A DNA stretch of 64,000 nucleotides, from NCBI GenBank assembly GCA_013387205.1, contig WARV01000001.1, forward strand, positions 86 through 64,085, read 5' to 3'. Each line of letters starts with the position of its first letter. Position 1 is the stretch's first letter. The notes beneath the pieces are model-generated. The model made no database searches. It saw nothing but the letters and a program-made list of their open reading frames with translations, and was not told where the DNA came from. The stretch comes from Patescibacteria group bacterium (GTDB lineage: Bacteria > Patescibacteriota > Doudnabacteria > UBA920). Of the stretch, positions 10,250 to 34,890 are shown piece after piece. The position numbers and the translations under genes were made by a program.

Positions 10250-10807
10250 ATGGAAGAAGAAAACACACAAACCCCAGCGGCCAACCCTGGCGAAGAAGCT
10301 CCGACCAACGTTGCTTCACCAGAAGGCGCGCAGAATGGTGGTTCCAATCCAACTACCACCCCTGCCTTGAGTTTAGAGGAAATCAATTCTTTGACGGGTC
10401 ACAAGTATTCAAACCTTGATGACGCCAAAAAGGGATTGGTCAATCTGAAGTCTGCCGTTGGGAAAAAGGAAATACCAGTGGACAATCCTGCTTTGGTTAA
10501 GCAGGTCAAAACCCTGGAATTTTTCCTTGAGCATCCCGAATACAAGGATGCAAAATCTTTGATAACCAAATTCGGGGACGACCCGAACGAGGTGATTAAA
10601 GACCCGGTTTTCCAACAGGCTTATAAAGGCATACAGGCTGTGGTAGAAACTGAAAAACAGAAAACGACCATAACGTCCACCTCCCGTGTTGCCACTCCGC
10701 CGTCCGACGAAGCCCAAAAAGCTTTTAAGGCCGCGCAGGATTCAGGCCTCCCCGAAGATTGGGGAAGCGTGATTATGCAAAGATCGGGACTGGACATTAA
10801 GGAATAG
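10250..10807 (+). CDS. Putative capsid scaffolding protein
   Basis: Acidic, disordered N-terminus; directly before capsid. Confidence 0.7.
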   Translation: MEEENTQTPAANPGEEAPTNVASPEGAQNGGSNPTTTPALSLEEINSLTGHKYSNLDDAKKGLVNLKSAVGKKEIPVDNPALVKQVKTLEFFLEHPEYKDAKSLITKFGDDPNEVIKDPVFQQAYKGIQAVVETEKQKTTITSTSRVATPPSDEAQKAFKAAQDSGLPEDWGSVIMQRSGLDIKE

Positions 10808-10809
10808 CA

Positions 10810-12346
10810 ATGGCAATAGGTTTAGGTTAAATTAGACCTATTAAAATCGAGCCATATGCTGGAAAACCCTTAGAATCTTTAACCCTAACTATGGAACAGT
10901 TTAAAGAATTGGGCAATCAGCAGGAAAGGCTTTCTCTTGTCTCTTATCTCTTTGGAATTATAGACGGCGAAGGTAGTTATCAGCTAGCTTCTGACATAAA
11001 TAAACATGGCCGTAGATATTTTTCCCCACAACTTAATATAAGCAACGCAAATCCAGGAATAATTGATTATTGCATAAAGGCTTTCAAACGTTTAGACGTA
11101 GCATATTATGTCTGGACGCCAAAAAAACACGGCAAAGAAAAATGCGTTTTATATCGATTGTGCGTAAAGGGAATAAAGAGAATGGCAAAATTTTTAGCGG
11201 TTGCGGCTTATTTCCCTCACGCTAAAATACGCCAAGCAAAGTTGTTAAAGAATTTTTGTGACTTGCGATTATCAATTGACCCAAAGAAAAAAGCCAGTGG
11301 TCACGAAATCACATACACAAATGCAGAAGTCGGATTCAAGAATGAACTTGGCCGACTAAACAAGGAATACAACACAAGAGGAAGAATCCTCAGAGACTAT
11401 ACGCTCGACTCTCTAAAAGAGAGATGATATAGTCCGACCTTCCACGAAATTGGAAGATTAACAAAACGTAATTACCTACCAAGACCCTACCCGCCGGGAA
11501 GATTTGATTGATGTGGTAACCAACGTGTCCGTCCAGGATACTCCACTCTTGTCAAACTTGCCGATGGGAACTGCCGCTAAGTCAACTTTGCACGAATATG
11601 CTACCGACAGCTTCGCCGATTATACCGATTCAGCCACCGCTGAAGGTTCCGGTGCTTCCGTTGTCGATTTGACTGCTCCGACACGCTCTAACAATGTAAA
11701 CCAAATTTTCAAGGATGACGTCAATGTCTCCAATACGGAAATTGCGGTTAATGGAGTGGTTGAGCCGTTCAAATACCAGCTCGGCAAAGTCATGGTGCAA
11801 CAGGCGAAAAATATTGAATTGGCTTTCATGGCCGGTTCAAGAAACTCCGGTAACTCCGGTGTCGCCCGCCGCCTCCAGGGTGTCATTAACGCAATTACCA
11901 CCAACGCTACTACCAGAGCTTCTGGAACTAGCTTGGGTGAAGTTGCTTTAAACGACATCTTGCAGATGATTTGGACTGGCACAGGTAAAGTCGCTACTAA
12001 CATTTATGTCGGTGCGACCTTGAAGAGAGATATCACCTCTCTGTCCACCACTGTTACCCGTTTCCAAGACGCTGCTTCAAAGCGTTTAACCAAACCGGTT
12101 TCAGTGTACGAATCAGATTTCGGTGTCCATGAAATCTACCTCCACAGGAACGTGCCGACTGGCGCGAACAACCTGACGTTGGTAGCTATCAACCCCGAAT
12201 TCCACCGCAAGTCCTACTTGCGCCCGACCCAGACCGTGCAGTTGCCGCCTGATGGCGATAGAACTCGCGCGATGATTGTTACCGAAGTCACCCTTGAACA
12301 CAAGGGAGAAAAGACTGGTGCAGTAGTCGGTGGATTCACCTCTTAA
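10810..12346 (+). CDS. Major capsid protein (DUF5309/SU10-like), spliced: join(10810..10822,11469..12346), 296 aa
   Basis: Splicing gives MAIGLITYQDPTRREDLIDVVTNVSVQDTPL..., restoring the REDL.D..N.S..DTP capsid motif; VYESDFG motif near the C-terminus. Confidence 0.88.
10823..11468 (+). ncRNA. Group I intron (646 nt) in major capsid gene
   Basis: P1 with U10822-G10835 wobble; P4 TGCTGG/TCAGCA; R CAGAGACTAT (11391-11400); S GATATAGTCC; P3 CGAGC/GCTCG; P8; P9; terminal G11468; P10 AATTA/TAATT. Confidence 0.92.
10891..11427 (+). CDS. Intron-encoded LAGLIDADG homing endonuclease (single motif)
   Basis: YLFGIIDGEGSY motif; lies inside the intron. Confidence 0.9.
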   Translation: MEQFKELGNQQERLSLVSYLFGIIDGEGSYQLASDINKHGRRYFSPQLNISNANPGIIDYCIKAFKRLDVAYYVWTPKKHGKEKCVLYRLCVKGIKRMAKFLAVAAYFPHAKIRQAKLLKNFCDLRLSIDPKKKASGHEITYTNAEVGFKNELGRLNKEYNTRGRILRDYTLDSLKER

Positions 12347-12409: not shown

Positions 12410-12782
12410 AATGAAAGAACAAGTGATAGGGAAAGAGCATTGGAACGTTGATAACGGGGATTTTAAGGGATTATGGGCTATCAATCCGGAAATGGCTCAA
12501 GGTGCTGACATTTGGCAGAAGATTGATGAGATTGTGATTGCCTACTCAAAATTAAATCCTGGCGAAGTTTTCTTGACCATACTGGAGAATAAAGCAGAAT
12601 CCGCAAGGCTCATGCACGAAACAGGGAAAACCAAGGGCGGAACGATGAGGTACGGTGCAGCATGGCCTCTGGGATTGTGGGTAAAGATAAAGCAACTCGC
12701 GCCGGACTTGTTTTTAAACAAGAAAAACTTCCATAAACTCTTAAGGAAATATCCAGGATTTACTATCGCAAAAAAAATATGA
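12410..12782 (+). CDS. Hypothetical protein after capsid
   Basis: ORF coupled (ATGA) to the glycosyltransferase. Confidence 0.7.
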
Positions 12783-15109
12783 AAACACTCTCTCTTTGTT
12801 TAATAGTTACCGCTGAAGATTTTAAAAAAGCCCTACCTGCCATAGAACAAATTAAGCCATTTGTAAATGAAGTTTGCATTACGGTCACGGACAGGACGGA
12901 AGGGTACGAAGATGGTGATAAATTAAAATTTTCTTACTTCAAATGGATTAATGATTTTGCCGCCGCTAGAAATTATAATTTTTCCCAAAGTTCTTGTGAC
13001 TGGATATTGTGGCTTGACGCTGATGACACTTTGGCTAATCCCGAAAAACTAAAAGGGTTAGTCCAATATGCGGAAGATAATCGGGTAGAAGGATATTACT
13101 TTTTATACAAATACGATTTTGACGCAAGCGGAAAATGCATAAACGAACACTGGAAAGCGCAGCTTCTTAAAAACAACGGGCATTTTAAATGGAAAGGCGC
13201 GATACACGAAGACCCTATCCAGGAACGCCCTGCAAGATGGGCGAAAGCTTACGATTGTGTTCGTATTCACCACTCCGACCACAAAAGGGGGAAGGAATCA
13301 AGCGAGCGCAATATGCGGATTCTGCTAAAGGAAAGAGAACGCGACCCCAAAGAGCCGAGAACCCTATTTTATCTAGGACGTGGATATATTGAATTGGAAG
13401 AATACCAAAAAGCCATTGACTGTTTAACTGAATACTTAGCCTTATCGGGATGGGATGACGAAAGGTATGAGGCAAGGCTGTTGATTGGAAGCTGTTTCAT
13501 GAGGACAAAACAGCATGAAGAAGCCTTGGGTTGGTATAACTCGGCTATTTTGGAGAAGGAAGAGTATCCAGACGCCTATATCCAAAAGGGCATGGCCTAT
13601 TTAAAGCTTGAAAAATGGGGACAAGCGCTTTCAAATTTTAAAACTGCCTTGGGTATGAACATCCCGGACGCTTCCACTTATTTCAACCCCATGCTTTACA
13701 AACGTGACTTATTCCTTGGAATCGCTTTTGCGTATTTGCAGATTGCCGAACTCGACCAGGCTTTGCCAGCAGTGCTGCAAGCTGAAAAAGCTGACCCAAA
13801 ATACCAAGAAACTTTGGATTTAAAAAAGATAATAGTTGAATTGAAATTTAAACACGATACTTCTAACCATTACGCCCGGTTAGCAAAATATTTAAAAGAC
13901 AAGAACCAGGAAGACAAGATTTTACCCTTATTATCTTCTGCACCGAAAGAACTGTTAGACGACCCTATTCTTCTTTCCTTGAAGTTCGCTTACCAGAAAC
14001 AATACACTTGGCCGGAGAAGTCAATTGCCGTTTATTGCGGTCCAACGGCTGAAAGCTGGACACCGGATTCACAGAATAACGGAGGGATAGGCGGAAGCGA
14101 AACCGCAGTAATCGAACTGACGAACAGATTGGCGGAAGATGGCTGGAATATCACAGTTTATAACCAATGCGACGCCCCGCCGGAAGGAAAGAGATACAGC
14201 AAGGTTTTATATAAAAATTACTGGACGTTTAACGTAGATGATGAATTTGATGTTTTGTGGGTTTGGAGATTGCCAGAACTTTTTGACTACGACTTGAATG
14301 CCAGACTGAAAATCTTAGATTTACATGATACCATGTCACCGGCAGATTTTACGCCTGAACGGGTGGCGAAAATGGACAAGATTTTTGTTAAGACAAATTT
14401 TCACCGTTCACTATATCCGAAAATCGCTGATGACAAATTCGTAATTGTCGGAAACGGGATTGATTTGAAGAGGTTTGAAGGAAAAGCAGAAAAAGACCCG
14501 CACCGATTCATGTATTCTTCCACACCAAACAGGGGGCTTGATACTCTGTTAAAGATGTGGCCGAAGATTAAAGAAAAAATCCCCGAAGCGACCCTGCATG
14601 TTTACTACGGTTGGAACACCTTTTACAAACTGGAGAAAAATAACCCAGAACGGATGATGTGGATGAAAAAAGTGCAGGAAATGATGAAACAGGACGGGGT
14701 AGTAGATCACGGGCGAGTTGGACAAAAAGAACTTGCCCAGGATATGTTAAAAACTTCCTTTTGGCTCTACCCCACTGACTTTCCGGAAATTGACTGCATT
14801 ACGGCCAAGGAAATGCAGGCAGCGGGAGTATATCCCATAACTTCTGGTTACGCAGCATTAGAAGAAAGCCAGATAAGTGGCATGAAGGTCAGGGGCGACA
14901 CTTACGACCCTGAGTGGCAAAAAGAATACATCAAGGAAGTGGTTAGTTATAAGGATGCAGAAATTAACCACGAGCATATTAAAACATTAAGTAAACAATT
15001 TTCTTGGGACAATGTAGCCCAAGTATGGAAGGAGCAATTAAATGGCGAAAGTTACAATAAAGAACTTGGGCGAGATTCAGCAAGCACCGAAGGAGAAATT
15101 TCAAATTAA
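12779..15109 (+). CDS. Multidomain glycosyltransferase: GT2 + TPR repeats + GT4-like (GT-B) domain
   Basis: DFAAARN...WILWLDADD (GT2, SunS/flagellin-GT type); TPR-like helical repeats; GIGGSETAV and E-x7-E (EIDCITAKE). Confidence 0.9.
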   Translation: MKTLSLCLIVTAEDFKKALPAIEQIKPFVNEVCITVTDRTEGYEDGDKLKFSYFKWINDFAAARNYNFSQSSCDWILWLDADDTLANPEKLKGLVQYAEDNRVEGYYFLYKYDFDASGKCINEHWKAQLLKNNGHFKWKGAIHEDPIQERPARWAKAYDCVRIHHSDHKRGKESSERNMRILLKERERDPKEPRTLFYLGRGYIELEEYQKAIDCLTEYLALSGWDDERYEARLLIGSCFMRTKQHEEALGWYNSAILEKEEYPDAYIQKGMAYLKLEKWGQALSNFKTALGMNIPDASTYFNPMLYKRDLFLGIAFAYLQIAELDQALPAVLQAEKADPKYQETLDLKKIIVELKFKHDTSNHYARLAKYLKDKNQEDKILPLLSSAPKELLDDPILLSLKFAYQKQYTWPEKSIAVYCGPTAESWTPDSQNNGGIGGSETAVIELTNRLAEDGWNITVYNQCDAPPEGKRYSKVLYKNYWTFNVDDEFDVLWVWRLPELFDYDLNARLKILDLHDTMSPADFTPERVAKMDKIFVKTNFHRSLYPKIADDKFVIVGNGIDLKRFEGKAEKDPHRFMYSSTPNRGLDTLLKMWPKIKEKIPEATLHVYYGWNTFYKLEKNNPERMMWMKKVQEMMKQDGVVDHGRVGQKELAQDMLKTSFWLYPTDFPEIDCITAKEMQAAGVYPITSGYAALEESQISGMKVRGDTYDPEWQKEYIKEVVSYKDAEINHEHIKTLSKQFSWDNVAQVWKEQLNGESYNKELGRDSASTEGEISN

Positions 15110-15182
15110 ATATCATAGCGGAATTACAACCTTAGAAGATGTGATCAACCAGCTAAACGAACATTTTAAGGAAAATGCCTAA
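15042..15182 (+). CDS. Small hypothetical protein (46 aa)
   Basis: AAGGAG RBS; MAKVTIKNLGEIQQ...KENA*; overlaps both neighbours. Confidence 0.5.
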   Translation: MAKVTIKNLGEIQQAPKEKFQIKYHSGITTLEDVINQLNEHFKENA

Positions 15183-16059
15183 GCTAAAGATTTCTTTTTT
15201 GTGGGATGGAGTGCGACTGCATTACGGCCAGAGATTTAAAGACGGGCTGTTTATGGCTCTTCAACACCTTAAGGAAAAGCATGAAGTTCGGATGTTTGAA
15301 CCTGACGAGATTGATAAAATAAATGGCTTTCGACCTGACGTGTTGCTGTATTGGGGTGCGTTGTGTGAGAATTCTAAACCCCTAGTTGCCTCTTACCCTT
15401 ATAAAAAAGCGATTTGTTTTGCCGGTGGACCGATTGAGCCAGGTAATGTGGACGGATTTGACCTTTACTTTACCGAATCAGAACAAAATGAATGGGAGTT
15501 TAAGGCTCTGAATAAACCATACATGAGGGCGTTTGGGGTAAATGAGGAACTGTATAAACCTTTACCATTAGAGAAAAAATATGACGCAATTTTCTTCGGC
15601 ACTCATGCGCTTTGGAAAAGGAATGACTTGTTTGCTAAAGCGGTTAAAGACAAAGGCGTGTCGATTGGCATTTTCCAAGACCACGAAAAAGAATGTTACC
15701 AAATCCCGCAAGCCGAGGGTTGTGAAGTCCATGACGAATTACCGAGGGAAGAAGTCGTTACGTTCATCAATCAAAGTCATATTGCCTTAAATACTGCTAA
15801 TTTCTGGGATGGGGGACAAAGGATGACCCTTGAGGCTATGGCTTGCGACGTTCCGCCGATAGTGATGAGCGATTCACCAAAAAACATGGAATATGTGGAT
15901 GAATCAGGGGTGGGGTTAGTAGTTGAACCAAACATAGAAGCGATAAGGGAAGCCATCGGAAGATTAAAAGGAACACAGGCGGGAAGAAAATACATTTTAT
16001 CAAAATGGACATCTAAACATTACGCTCAAAATTTAGAAAAAGGGCTATTACAATTATGA
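15175..16059 (+). CDS. Glycosyltransferase, GT4-like
   Basis: DGGQRMTLEAMACDVP motif, GLVVEPN. Confidence 0.85.
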   Translation: MPKLKISFLWDGVRLHYGQRFKDGLFMALQHLKEKHEVRMFEPDEIDKINGFRPDVLLYWGALCENSKPLVASYPYKKAICFAGGPIEPGNVDGFDLYFTESEQNEWEFKALNKPYMRAFGVNEELYKPLPLEKKYDAIFFGTHALWKRNDLFAKAVKDKGVSIGIFQDHEKECYQIPQAEGCEVHDELPREEVVTFINQSHIALNTANFWDGGQRMTLEAMACDVPPIVMSDSPKNMEYVDESGVGLVVEPNIEAIREAIGRLKGTQAGRKYILSKWTSKHYAQNLEKGLLQL

Positions 16060-17126
16060 TTCCTATTTCCAAACCATCAGCCGACGACCAGACCAAACAA
16101 GATTTATTGGAAGTTTTAGATTCGGGCTGGTGGGGCAAGGGGCCAAAAGTTGAAGAATTTGAAAAAAAGTTTGCCGAATATGTTGGACAGCAATATGCCG
16201 TTGCTGTTAACTCCGCCACTTCTGCCCTGGATTTATGTTTAAAAGCTGCTGATATTTCCGGCGGCGAACTTTACACCACTCCATTGACTTTTGTTTCTGA
16301 CGCCATTGTGGGGGAGTGGAATAACATGACCGTGACGTTTGGAGATATCGACCCGGAAACACTCTGTTTAGACCCTAAAAGTTTTTATCCATCTAAAAAC
16401 ACTAAGGCGGTAATTGCAGTGGATTCTCATGGAAGGTTGGCTGACATTGATGGTTTTAGGAAAAAGTTTAACGGGTTGATTATTGAAGACGCCGCCCATG
16501 CCATGTACACCCCAGGAGCAGGAAAAGGTGATATGACCGTTTGGTCTTTCCAGGCAGTAAAGACTTTGCCTTGCGGTGACGGCGGCATGATTACCACTAA
16601 CAATAAGAAATATTACGACAAGTTAAAATCCTTAACTTGGTTAGGAATTGAAAAGCCAACATTCTCCCGTGTTTCAGACAAAGGCTACCAATGGGATTAC
16701 GATATTTTCCAATCAGGCATAAAAGCCTATATGAATGATTTAACGGCGGTAATTGGCCTTGGACAACTTAGAAGACTTGATGAAATGAACGCCTGGCGCA
16801 GGGGCATACAAGACCAATATAACGAAGCGTTTAAAAACCATCCACATATCAAGATTCCTGCTTATTCCCATACAGTTCAATATTATACGCCAAGATTTAA
16901 AGACCGTGACGAGCTATGCCAATACTTAGCTAGTAAAGGGATATGCAGCTCTGTCCATTTTAAACCTTTAACAGAGATGGATTACTGGCGCAAGCATTCC
17001 CGATCTGCTCCCATTCCTAATGTCTATCGAATTTGGCCTGAATTATTATCCCTGCCTGTGTATTACGGTTTAACTGGAGATGAAGTTAATCACATTATTA
17101 AAACAGTTCTTGATTTCTATGGCTAA
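16056..17126 (+). CDS. DegT/DnrJ/EryC1/StrS sugar aminotransferase
   Basis: AVNSATSAL, IEDAAHA, SFQAVK (PLP Lys), GDGGM. Confidence 0.95.
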   Translation: MIPISKPSADDQTKQDLLEVLDSGWWGKGPKVEEFEKKFAEYVGQQYAVAVNSATSALDLCLKAADISGGELYTTPLTFVSDAIVGEWNNMTVTFGDIDPETLCLDPKSFYPSKNTKAVIAVDSHGRLADIDGFRKKFNGLIIEDAAHAMYTPGAGKGDMTVWSFQAVKTLPCGDGGMITTNNKKYYDKLKSLTWLGIEKPTFSRVSDKGYQWDYDIFQSGIKAYMNDLTAVIGLGQLRRLDEMNAWRRGIQDQYNEAFKNHPHIKIPAYSHTVQYYTPRFKDRDELCQYLASKGICSSVHFKPLTEMDYWRKHSRSAPIPNVYRIWPELLSLPVYYGLTGDEVNHIIKTVLDFYG

Positions 17127-17700
17127 ACTGTCGGTCATTATTCCTCATTACCCATACGGTGACGAAATTAATAATAAGTTGGATGAATGTAGGAGCAAAC
17201 TGGAAAATTACGACGAACTTGTATTAGTTGTTAATCAGGGAATTGGTTTTGCAAAAGCAGTGAATTTGGGTTTTAAGATGGCAAAAGGTGATTTTCTGCT
17301 TTTAGTGAGTAATGACGTAATTTATACGGGCGGTGATATTCGGGATTTATGTGACCCAGAAGCAGTGACTTGTCCAGTAGTGAACGGAAGAAGGCAGGAA
17401 TTTTACGGATGCACCTTTTGCTTGCCGAGATGGGTATATGAAAAGATATGTGCCTTAAGAGGTGGAAAACAATTTTTAGATGAACAATTTGATATTGGTT
17501 TTTTTGAAGATGACAATCTAATTATGGAACTTCGCCAACTAAATATTCCTATGCGCTCAGTTAAAACAGTTTCCGCCGTAACCCAAGGCAGCCAGACTAT
17601 GAAGATTTTTGGTTCCGCTGACCCTTATAACAACAACCGCGCGAGATTTATTAAGAAATGGGGTGTAAGCAGTTCTAACCCGATTAAATATGAAGATTAG
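17119..17700 (+). CDS. Glycosyltransferase family 2
   Basis: SVIIP, GFAKAVNLG, LVSNDV, FFEDD. Confidence 0.85.
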   Translation: MAKLSVIIPHYPYGDEINNKLDECRSKLENYDELVLVVNQGIGFAKAVNLGFKMAKGDFLLLVSNDVIYTGGDIRDLCDPEAVTCPVVNGRRQEFYGCTFCLPRWVYEKICALRGGKQFLDEQFDIGFFEDDNLIMELRQLNIPMRSVKTVSAVTQGSQTMKIFGSADPYNNNRARFIKKWGVSSSNPIKYED

Positions 17701-18349
17701 CGTAATTTGTGTTACCAACCGTAAAGGCGCAATAGCTTTCTTAAAGAAGCAGTTAGATAAACAGACCTTCAAAGACTTTGATGTTATCGTAGCAGATGAT
17801 AGTGGTGACGAAGATTTTTTCGAGCAGTTCAAGCCACGCCAAAAAAACGAAGGCGATGTTTGGAACTTAAACAAGGCATATAACGACTGCTTGAGCAAAG
17901 TAACTGGGGAACTAATTGTTTTTTTACAAGATTTTATTGAAATTCCCGCTAACGGATTAGAAAGATTTTGGGAACTTTATCAACTTTACCCAAATGATTT
18001 AATTACAGGTTGCGGACATAAATACGAAAACGGCAGGATTGCAGAAACGGACAGTAGGTGCTTTGGCGACAGAAAACTTGTTTCTTCTGACTGGACTTTT
18101 TATGAACTAAATTGGGCTTCTTGTCCCGCAAAAATTGCGCCAAGGTTTGAAGAAGATATGGACAAATTCTACGGTGGGGAAAATATCGTGTTTGCTTTAA
18201 AAGCCCATTTAAAAGGTTCGGAAATCTGGCTAGACCGGATAAACGAATGCAAGGGGCTTGCCCATAACGACAGGCCAAGTGACTGGGAAGATTTACACCA
18301 TAATAAGAATAATCGTTTAAATGACAAAATTAAGAGTTTAATTATATGA
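17690..18349 (+). CDS. Glycosyltransferase family 2
   Basis: ISVICVT, QTFKDFDVIVADD, GELIVFLQD, YGGEN. Confidence 0.85.
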   Translation: MKISVICVTNRKGAIAFLKKQLDKQTFKDFDVIVADDSGDEDFFEQFKPRQKNEGDVWNLNKAYNDCLSKVTGELIVFLQDFIEIPANGLERFWELYQLYPNDLITGCGHKYENGRIAETDSRCFGDRKLVSSDWTFYELNWASCPAKIAPRFEEDMDKFYGGENIVFALKAHLKGSEIWLDRINECKGLAHNDRPSDWEDLHHNKNNRLNDKIKSLII

Positions 18350-33743: not shown

Positions 33744-34020
33744 ACTGAAACATAAAAGTTTTTTTGACGTTTTAATATACGATTTGACAGCTTTTTAAAA
33801 TAGGCGTATACCTAAGACATAATAAACTAAATAACCACTTATAACCTGTTAAATCGGGTTGCCCCAAATAAAGGGGGCTTGCGGATAAGTGATCAGACTA
33901 AAGGCCATTATTTGTGATACAATAAGAGCCTAGCCCTAAGTTTGGAAACAAAAATAGTGGCCAAAATTCTGTCTGTCACCATAAAGCCCGCAAGCTGAGT
34001 GGTTGGCAGGCAGTTTTTTT

Positions 34021-34890
34021 ATGAACAACGCGATTGTTACTTATTTGGAGTGGAAGGGGATAGCCCATGAGAGAGCATCTAAAGCCTATATAAAACCATT
34101 ACACAGGCTGGCTGAATATTTAAACAAAAAAGTTAGTGAACTTACTACGGATGATGTAAAAAAGTTCCTCAAATATTTAAAAGAGGAGCTTCCCAAGCTG
34201 TCTACAAGGGGGGATTGGCGCACAAACTTTTATTTCCATACGAATGTCATCCGTGATTTTATTAAACATTGGAATGATGAGGGGGTGTGTAATGTAAGGC
34301 CAGGAATTATCGAGGTTCCCAAGTACAGTTTCAACCCTTACCCATCGGTTACTATTGAAGAATTTGAGATGATGGATGATTATCTAGCCACCGAGCCAGA
34401 CAATTTTGCCAATCTTCAGAAACGGATGATTATACACTTTTTATGGTGGACGGGCGTTAGGGTATCAGAGCTTACCGATTTAAGATGGACTATTATTAAC
34501 CAATCCGAGCAGGGATTACCAATAAAAAATAAAAAGAACGGTGATATCAGATATATATTTTGGCCACCCCAAACCCACTTACTGCTTTTAAGATTTATCA
34601 GGGAAAGAAAACAGTTTACTGGGAATAGCCTATTAGTGACTTACCTGGGGAAAATGCACCCTCGCTGTGTCCAAAGGTTTTTAGAAAATTTAGGGAAAAA
34701 ACTGGGGATAACTTACCACCTATCACCACACTGTTTTCGTCAGGGTTGGGCAAAATATAGGTTGGAAAAGGGGGCGGATCTAAAACTAATAAAAGACGGA
34801 TTAGGCCACACTTCTTACGATTCTACGGACAGATACTTAATACTAAATTATAAACTGCAAAGGGAAAGAGCGGTGAAATATTTGACATAA
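34021..34890 (+). CDS. Tyrosine recombinase/integrase (XerC/D-like)
   Basis: TGVRVSE (R), KNG (K), HCFR, LGH, DRY catalytic residues intact; no long arm-binding domain. Confidence 0.92.
   Translation: MNNAIVTYLEWKGIAHERASKAYIKPLHRLAEYLNKKVSELTTDDVKKFLKYLKEELPKLSTRGDWRTNFYFHTNVIRDFIKHWNDEGVCNVRPGIIEVPKYSFNPYPSVTIEEFEMMDDYLATEPDNFANLQKRMIIHFLWWTGVRVSELTDLRWTIINQSEQGLPIKNKKNGDIRYIFWPPQTHLLLLRFIRERKQFTGNSLLVTYLGKMHPRCVQRFLENLGKKLGITYHLSPHCFRQGWAKYRLEKGADLKLIKDGLGHTSYDSTDRYLILNYKLQRERAVKYLT

Follow-up and report, generated by a model that had tools for sequence, protein, structure and literature searches.

Capsid introns with LAGLIDADG-like genes are already part of the published record. In the mycobacteriophage LittleE, the capsid gene is interrupted by an intron that holds the LAGLIDADG-like gp14, the splicing of which was demonstrated by RT-PCR, and a capsid intron in Tuc2009 is mentioned in the same report (Pope et al. 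2013, PMC3706429). In crAss-like phages, several group I introns may occupy a single major capsid protein gene, one of which is found in five fragments (Yutin et al. 2021, PMC7886860). Outside of phages, rRNA introns of subgroup IB4 that contain single-domain LAGLIDADG genes have been described in CPR bacteria and archaea, and I-ShaI was found to dimerise and to cut its own insertion site (PMC11270868, PMC6125680); IB4 introns at LSU/1931 have likewise been published (PMC6125680). The T4 td intron contains the I-TevI ORF in its P6 loop, reaching into P6/P7, and has an in-frame stop just past the 5′ splice site; overlap of an ORF with the intron core has been termed “core creep”, and for other introns such overlap has been described at both ends (Edgell et al. 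2011, PMC3073962). For td, both the early intronic stop and the clearing of exon-intron traps by ribosomes are on record (PMC3073962, PMC3017892, PMC3984707). Subgroup IA2 accounts for more than half of the group I introns of viruses (PMC11835236), and LAGLIDADG proteins are not the usual phage intron enzyme (PMC3984707); Jug phages carry many introns and 17 LAGLIDADG genes (PMC12880540), and group II introns are treated elsewhere (PMC12350094).

Here, we examined a capsid locus within a 64,000-nucleotide stretch of Patescibacteria DNA, the whole of which we call the window and in which all features given below lie on the forward (+) strand. As in LittleE, the phage is temperate and its major capsid gene is interrupted by a group I-type intron; the exon before it ends in U, the intron itself in G, and a LAGLIDADG-like ORF of some 177 aa lies within. 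In LittleE, however, the ORF is on the bottom strand, whereas ours is in the sense orientation and overlaps the core, and our intron is inserted 13 nt into an SU10-family capsid gene in a Patescibacteria host. With crAss-like phages it shares a capsid gene split by group I introns, although there the introns are hosted by large gut phages. As in td, the ORF sits in the P6 loop and runs into the core, and a stop lies just inside the intron; td differs in its GIY-YIG enzyme and long first exon, against a LAGLIDADG enzyme and a 13-nt exon 1 here. The IB4 rRNA introns resemble ours in their compact core, in the placement of the ORF in L6 and in their single-motif enzyme, but our intron resides in an mRNA and the endonucleases fall on separate long branches. 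A literature search confined largely to main texts from non-subscription journals returned neither a capsid intron in a Patescibacteria phage nor a phage intron so close to a start codon. The cluster of start-adjacent sites and the CPR host are modest additions.

The capsid gene belongs to a phage structural module with genes for the small and large terminase subunits (5551 and 6543), a 614-aa portal-like gene, a probable scaffold gene and the capsid. The scaffold candidate (10250–10807, 185 aa) has no Pfam or PHROG match, and its function is assigned from its position between the portal-like and capsid genes; its TAG stop precedes the capsid ATG by 2 nt. Beyond an integrase gene (34003–34890) the genes are cellular, among them those for GluRS, deformylase and QueA, from which we read the region as a prophage, the left end of which is cut by the contig start; no att site was found. 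The host genome measures 1.30 Mb and is 98% complete.

The capsid reading frame starts at 10810, 6 nt after a Shine-Dalgarno-like AAGGA (10799–10803), and if left unspliced ends after six codons at a TAA (10828–10830), as the sequence-only reading had stated. That reading had assigned positions 10810–11506 to a group I intron with a LAGLIDADG endonuclease, inserted 13 nt into the capsid gene. The insertion and exon 1 (10810–10822, 13 nt) hold; the intron itself spans 10823–11468 and does not extend to 11506. Homologue N-termini place the 5′ splice site after U10822, the first base of codon 5. Exon 2 (11469–12346) encodes an SU10-type major capsid protein (PF17236, E 1e-64, 218.9 bits against a cut-off of 24.1) that also matches phrog_1328. 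Once spliced, the frame is 296 aa long and continues into the ORF called at 11504, so that the ORF track indeed truncates the capsid: the database product of this gene (P0001) has 260 aa, and automatic calls in general 260–280 aa. When all U|...G| combinations were tried against intronless capsids, 10822/11468 was the best-scoring splice (107, with the next at 97). The homologue set comprised 119 proteins besides the window’s own, drawn from the best 120 of 408 matches. Homologues beginning at 11504 had been named as the outcome that would speak against an intron; in sequence comparison, the segment upstream of this position is present in 110/119, with eight of the others N-truncated and one a variant, and 83/119 start with M[AP]IGLI[TS]. 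Because this N-terminal motif is restored only by the splice, we conclude that the capsid gene is split by an intron. The gene model is corrected accordingly, to a capsid of 296 aa and an endonuclease gene that is intron-borne instead of free-standing.

The intron has 646 nt and an IB-like core that includes neither P2, P5abc nor P7.1/7.2. By direct pairing we found all of the core elements that had been proposed, P3, P4, P7, P8, P9 and the terminal G11468, and the helices pair as expected of a group I intron. P1 (10815–10842) is an 11-pair helix of 10815–10825 with 10832–10842, including the U10822.G10835 wobble (pair probability 0.98–1.0), and the in-frame TAA lies in its loop. P10, between the IGS (10830–10834) and the 3′ exon (11469–11473), is confirmed with 5/5 pairs. 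The 5′ strands of P3 (10847–10852, partner 11403–11408; 6 pairs and a terminal C.C mismatch), P4 (10857–10861; 5 pairs) and P5 (10867–10869; 3 pairs) occupy 10847–10869. The 3′ strands of P5 and P4 (the Q element) and the 5′ strands of P6 (3 pairs) and P6a follow at 10911–10939, a stretch that also codes for the conserved peptide at the N-terminus of the ORF. P6a pairs 10/10 across 435 nt. Its 3′ strand and that of P6, P7, the P3 3′ strand and P8 (11409–11423; 6 pairs) make up 11375–11435; P7 has 6 pairs with G11395–C11434 and a bulged A11394. The P9 hairpin (11439–11456) pairs 6/6, P9.0 only 1/2. In 7/8 parsed introns (two of them near-copies) the six pairs of P3 are kept with differing letters, the eighth having 5/6, and P3 thus covaries.

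The window has no match to Rfam RF00028 that reaches the gathering score of 50: the 3′ core scores 35.5 bits (E 3e-7) and the P4-P5 piece has an E of 0.16, the match being split by the ORF. A short related intron at another locus, L064, scores 70.9. The folding z of the 3′ core is −4.9, reached as a non-native variant that omits the pseudoknot. A P7.1/P7.2 extension between P7 and P3 is a feature of subgroup IA2, to which the td intron belongs. Here the 5′ strand of P7 ends at 11399 and the 3′ strand of P3 starts at 11402–11403, which leaves the IA-type extension absent and speaks against IA2, the usual phage type, for the capsid intron. The intron is likely to self-splice.

The ORF within the intron (10891–11427, 178 aa) starts in L5 and passes through P5, P4, P6 and P6a; its main part lies in L6, and its TGA stop (11425–11427) falls in J8/7. 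Both ends thus overlap the core, as had already been recognized from sequence. Its start may instead be the TTG at 10909, where relatives carry ATG. It has no Pfam match at 0.01; LAGLIDADG_3 is sub-threshold for the window ORF (E 0.023) and is matched by 19/24 members of the endonuclease family at E up to 0.1. The proposed LAGLIDADG identity is supported by an AlphaFold model (pLDDT 78, pTM 0.74), the top Foldseek matches of which are I-CreI and I-Vdi141I (E about 3e-6, TM 0.53) and which has a DSSP order of alpha-beta-beta-alpha-beta-beta-alpha. Further, ESM clusters for the ORF are named LAGLIDADG (score 0.94), while solved structures gave no clear sequence match (best E 0.45). The nearest PHROG family carries an HNH label, with which the predicted fold disagrees. 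There is a single LAGLIDADG motif (residues 19–29) with an acidic E27 at its catalytic position; K112 is invariant in 24/24 family members and N52 nearly so, and we take E27, N52 and K112 to be the equivalents of I-CreI D20, Q47 and K98. The ORF is thus predicted to fold as an I-CreI-like single-motif protein. Its 11 close homologues (47–73% identity) are all intact, and 2023 distant relatives were found at E up to 0.001. Model confidence is low at residues 1–8 and 165–178, and in nine or more relatives, L001 among them, the terminal peptides lie in a different frame; together, the low pLDDT and the other reading frame indicate that these peptides are driven by the RNA. In contigs from DNA runs, two short-sided joints from other introns replace 10932–11382, which weakly points to L6 as a variable site. 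The exon junction is not clearly symmetric for a homodimer: 5/9 positions match at offsets −4, 0 and +5, where chance would give about 2, and the three offsets tie.

Close endonuclease relatives with available DNA are found at four loci (L001, L002, L003 and L183), all of them at capsid codon 5. The insertion is at +13 in L001, L003 and L183 and at +14 in L002, with L001 and L003 being near-copies and L183, which is without its 3′ end, read from the 5′ side only. This LAGLIDADG lineage, apparently uncatalogued and at capsid codon 5 in all four mapped loci, may be a source of nucleases with new specificity. Second introns occur near codon 28 in L001 and L003 and near codon 45 in L002; at the site shared by L001 and L003, the L001 intron has 783 nt and includes a short ORF of zinc-finger-like type, against 265 nt in L003. 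Of 382 viral capsid loci we examined the 80 that ranked best, by a ranking that disfavours split genes, and three of these bear introns: L020 at +14, with a different endonuclease; L010, with one at +22 and another near codon 224; and L064, with three introns near codons 45, 120 and 219, the second only roughly placed. In this phage group, the SU10-type capsid genes thus have introns at eight sites, of which three (+13, +14 and +22) are at most 22 nt from the start codon and five lie further in. The family is thereby a compact natural test of the way in which initiation and P1 folding make use of a single piece of RNA. At L010 the capsid start seems to be a TTG (L010:1852), with the intron at +22. 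A further protein, P0139, has an N-terminal extension that reads through a capsid start and P1; its own start is probably mis-called, which would make it one more case of a capsid intron at codon 5. In L001, the end of the scaffold coding sequence (L001:2769-2782) looks like a group I P7 (R) element, but no S element follows and the likeness is probably due to chance.

In the capsid tree, in which we disregarded the L003 row (branch of 3.1, probably a frame slip) and L002 contributed only 39 aa, intron-bearing members are scattered among intronless ones. In the endonuclease tree, built by a quick method and unrooted, the window (+13) and L002 (+14) fall in a 15-row group with a support of 97 that is without L001 and L183 (+13), and the L020 and L010 endonucleases fall elsewhere. 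One endonuclease lineage therefore occupies adjacent sites: the window and L002 enzymes are 47% identical and their introns one base apart (10822 and L002:356), which could reflect either a shift of the intron or an exchange of endonucleases between introns. A single-protein scan of viral contigs gave no match, neither the genome contigs nor annotated phages held an endonuclease relative, two sequence-pattern matches (L168, L169) proved false, and a different pattern matched nothing. The capsid search gave no match in the relatives’ genomes (0/40) and was positive in 4/145 genomes of the host class, of which only G055 was strong, with a single match over profile positions 1–295 and no stop.

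We consider it very probable that this is a self-splicing group I intron that arrived in the capsid gene by homing into a conserved N-terminal motif. We infer splicing and cleavage by this system from known group I biology. In such a course, the intron would be excised from the capsid mRNA by guanosine attack at the U.G pair, and ligation of the exons would be guided by P10. The predicted LAGLIDADG protein would dimerise as a homodimer and cut intronless capsid alleles near the insertion site, at the codons for Gly4-Leu5-Ile6-Thr7-Tyr8, and repair of the cut allele would copy the intron across, possibly during co-infection or superinfection of a lysogen. As the ORF starts and ends inside core helices, the endonuclease would presumably be translated at a low level. 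The distribution of sites, at +13, +14 and +22 and at five places further in, is best read as homing into the conserved N-terminal motif, and the proximity to the start codon would follow from this motif being a conserved target and not from a regulatory role. These comparisons give no evidence of recent homing: the nearest intronless capsids among the matches listed are at most 68% identical to that of the window, and four DNA runs contained no near-identical intronless allele.

These last observations also bear on the possibility that the element is degenerating, with an intron that splices while its endonuclease is inactive or acts as a maturase only, or with a defective prophage that leaves the intron unexpressed. 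We regard this as unlikely. The intron was seen in a single copy, no close intronless target turned up in the four DNA runs, no joint skipping 10823–11468 was found in their four shallow assemblies with patchy cover, the exon junction is not clearly symmetric, the left end of the prophage is cut by the contig start, and LAGLIDADG maturase activity is on record (PMC3984707). On the other hand, every core helix is intact, as is the ORF with its conserved motif residues, and the 11 close relatives are intact too. Practically no credence is due to the reading in which there is no intron, but a free-standing endonuclease gene between the scaffold gene and a capsid gene that starts with TTG at 11504, or an assembly artefact. 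The length of the automatic capsid calls and the Rfam score under the cut-off would agree with it; it is refuted by the homologue N-termini, the motif of which only the splice recovers, and is at odds with the covariation of the full core and with public DNA-run contigs (X1–X3) that span both exon-intron junctions with zero differences, albeit from one study that is possibly the source campaign.

The sequence-only reading had further suggested that P1 touches the start codon and that splicing could gate capsid production. P1, however, begins at +6 and leaves the start codon outside. That unspliced RNA makes no capsid is correct but trivial, since it is true of any intron in a gene, and regulatory gating of the capsid is not supported. 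What could speak for it is a predicted rival fold (10805–10861) of the folding model, in which P1 is extended outward, 10810–10814 pairing with 10851–10855 and 10805–10809 with 10857–10861 to the exclusion of P3 and P4. It is the basis of a quite improbable reading in which the scaffold stop and the capsid start are sequestered by the 5′ strands of P3 and P4, so that neither initiation nor splicing can proceed before a ribosome reaches the end of the scaffold gene and frees them; the dependence of capsid output on scaffold translation would then be a product of selection. In ViennaRNA the rival pairs have probabilities of 0.98 and 0.89 in the full precursor, where this fold is more stable by 6.5 kcal/mol than the best nested native structure; the probability that the start codon is free of pairing is 0.02 in the precursor and 0.69 after splicing, and among 300 shuffled leaders 4% conceal the start equally well. 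The scaffold stop lies within 2 nt of the capsid ATG, and ribosomes are known to relieve exon-intron traps in T4 td (PMC3017892, PMC3073962). Against this, 22–32% of the shuffles reach as many pairs with the core, and when leaders of intronless genes were placed before the window intron, 5/14 (two of them identical) brought the unpaired probability of the start to 0.05 or below. The complement of AUGGC is largely the P3-J3/4 consensus, and the model that favors the trap omits the P7 pseudoknot and tertiary contacts. Moreover, the trap is absent from the four other distinct start-proximal introns that we folded (L001/L003, L002, L020 and L010; start unpaired 0.47–0.98), the distance between the upstream stop and the capsid start varies among relatives, from 2 nt up to about 87 nt, and five of the insertion sites lie far from the start. 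We therefore read the rival fold as incidental, although in the window copy it could slow or impair splicing. Were the ribosome-dependent trap real, capsid would be tied to scaffold synthesis in the phage of an ultra-small bacterium; unless it holds, knowledge of group I introns is unchanged by this locus.

Weak matches to the endonuclease profile (E 1e-11 to 1e-5) were found in 37/400 other genomes of the host phylum, and 29 loci were examined. Nine of them have a 5′ exon that we take to be 23S position 1931. The cores of these presumed 23S introns are 72–87% identical to that of the window over 85 motif-picked bases, a figure inflated by the picking, and their ORFs lie in the same loop (L6). 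The phage intron thus appears to have a core type in common with the 23S introns of its host phylum, and the rRNA-type core of Patescibacteria would occur in that phylum’s phages too. A recent transfer from host rRNA was rejected: the endonucleases are far apart, with those of the host phylum on long separate branches of the quick unrooted tree, and the host’s own 23S and tRNA introns differ from the phage intron. Of these two, the tRNA-Asn gene has a 299-nt group I intron of 87.6 bits (L174, G000:C24:52105-52478), the core of which is 67% identical to that of the window and the P8 region of which contains a second copy of the tRNA 3′ end sequence. The 23S rRNA gene carries a group I-like intron of 33 bits (L176, G000:C12:25675-25977) with a core unlike that of the phage intron and no match to the window endonuclease family.

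Some minor observations concern the remainder of the prophage and its host. Between capsid and adaptor (12779–18349) there are glycosyltransferase genes, one of them TPR-fused (776 aa), together with a DegT-type aminotransferase, a block that suggests virion glycosylation. A free-standing NUMOD4-HNH endonuclease gene (1716–2288) is situated among the early genes. The host genome has a PF18895 pilin match just below threshold. Near the prophage end, a dATP/dGTP diphosphohydrolase N-terminal domain (PF18909, 32632–33120) is encoded beside a metallophosphoesterase and may point to base modification.
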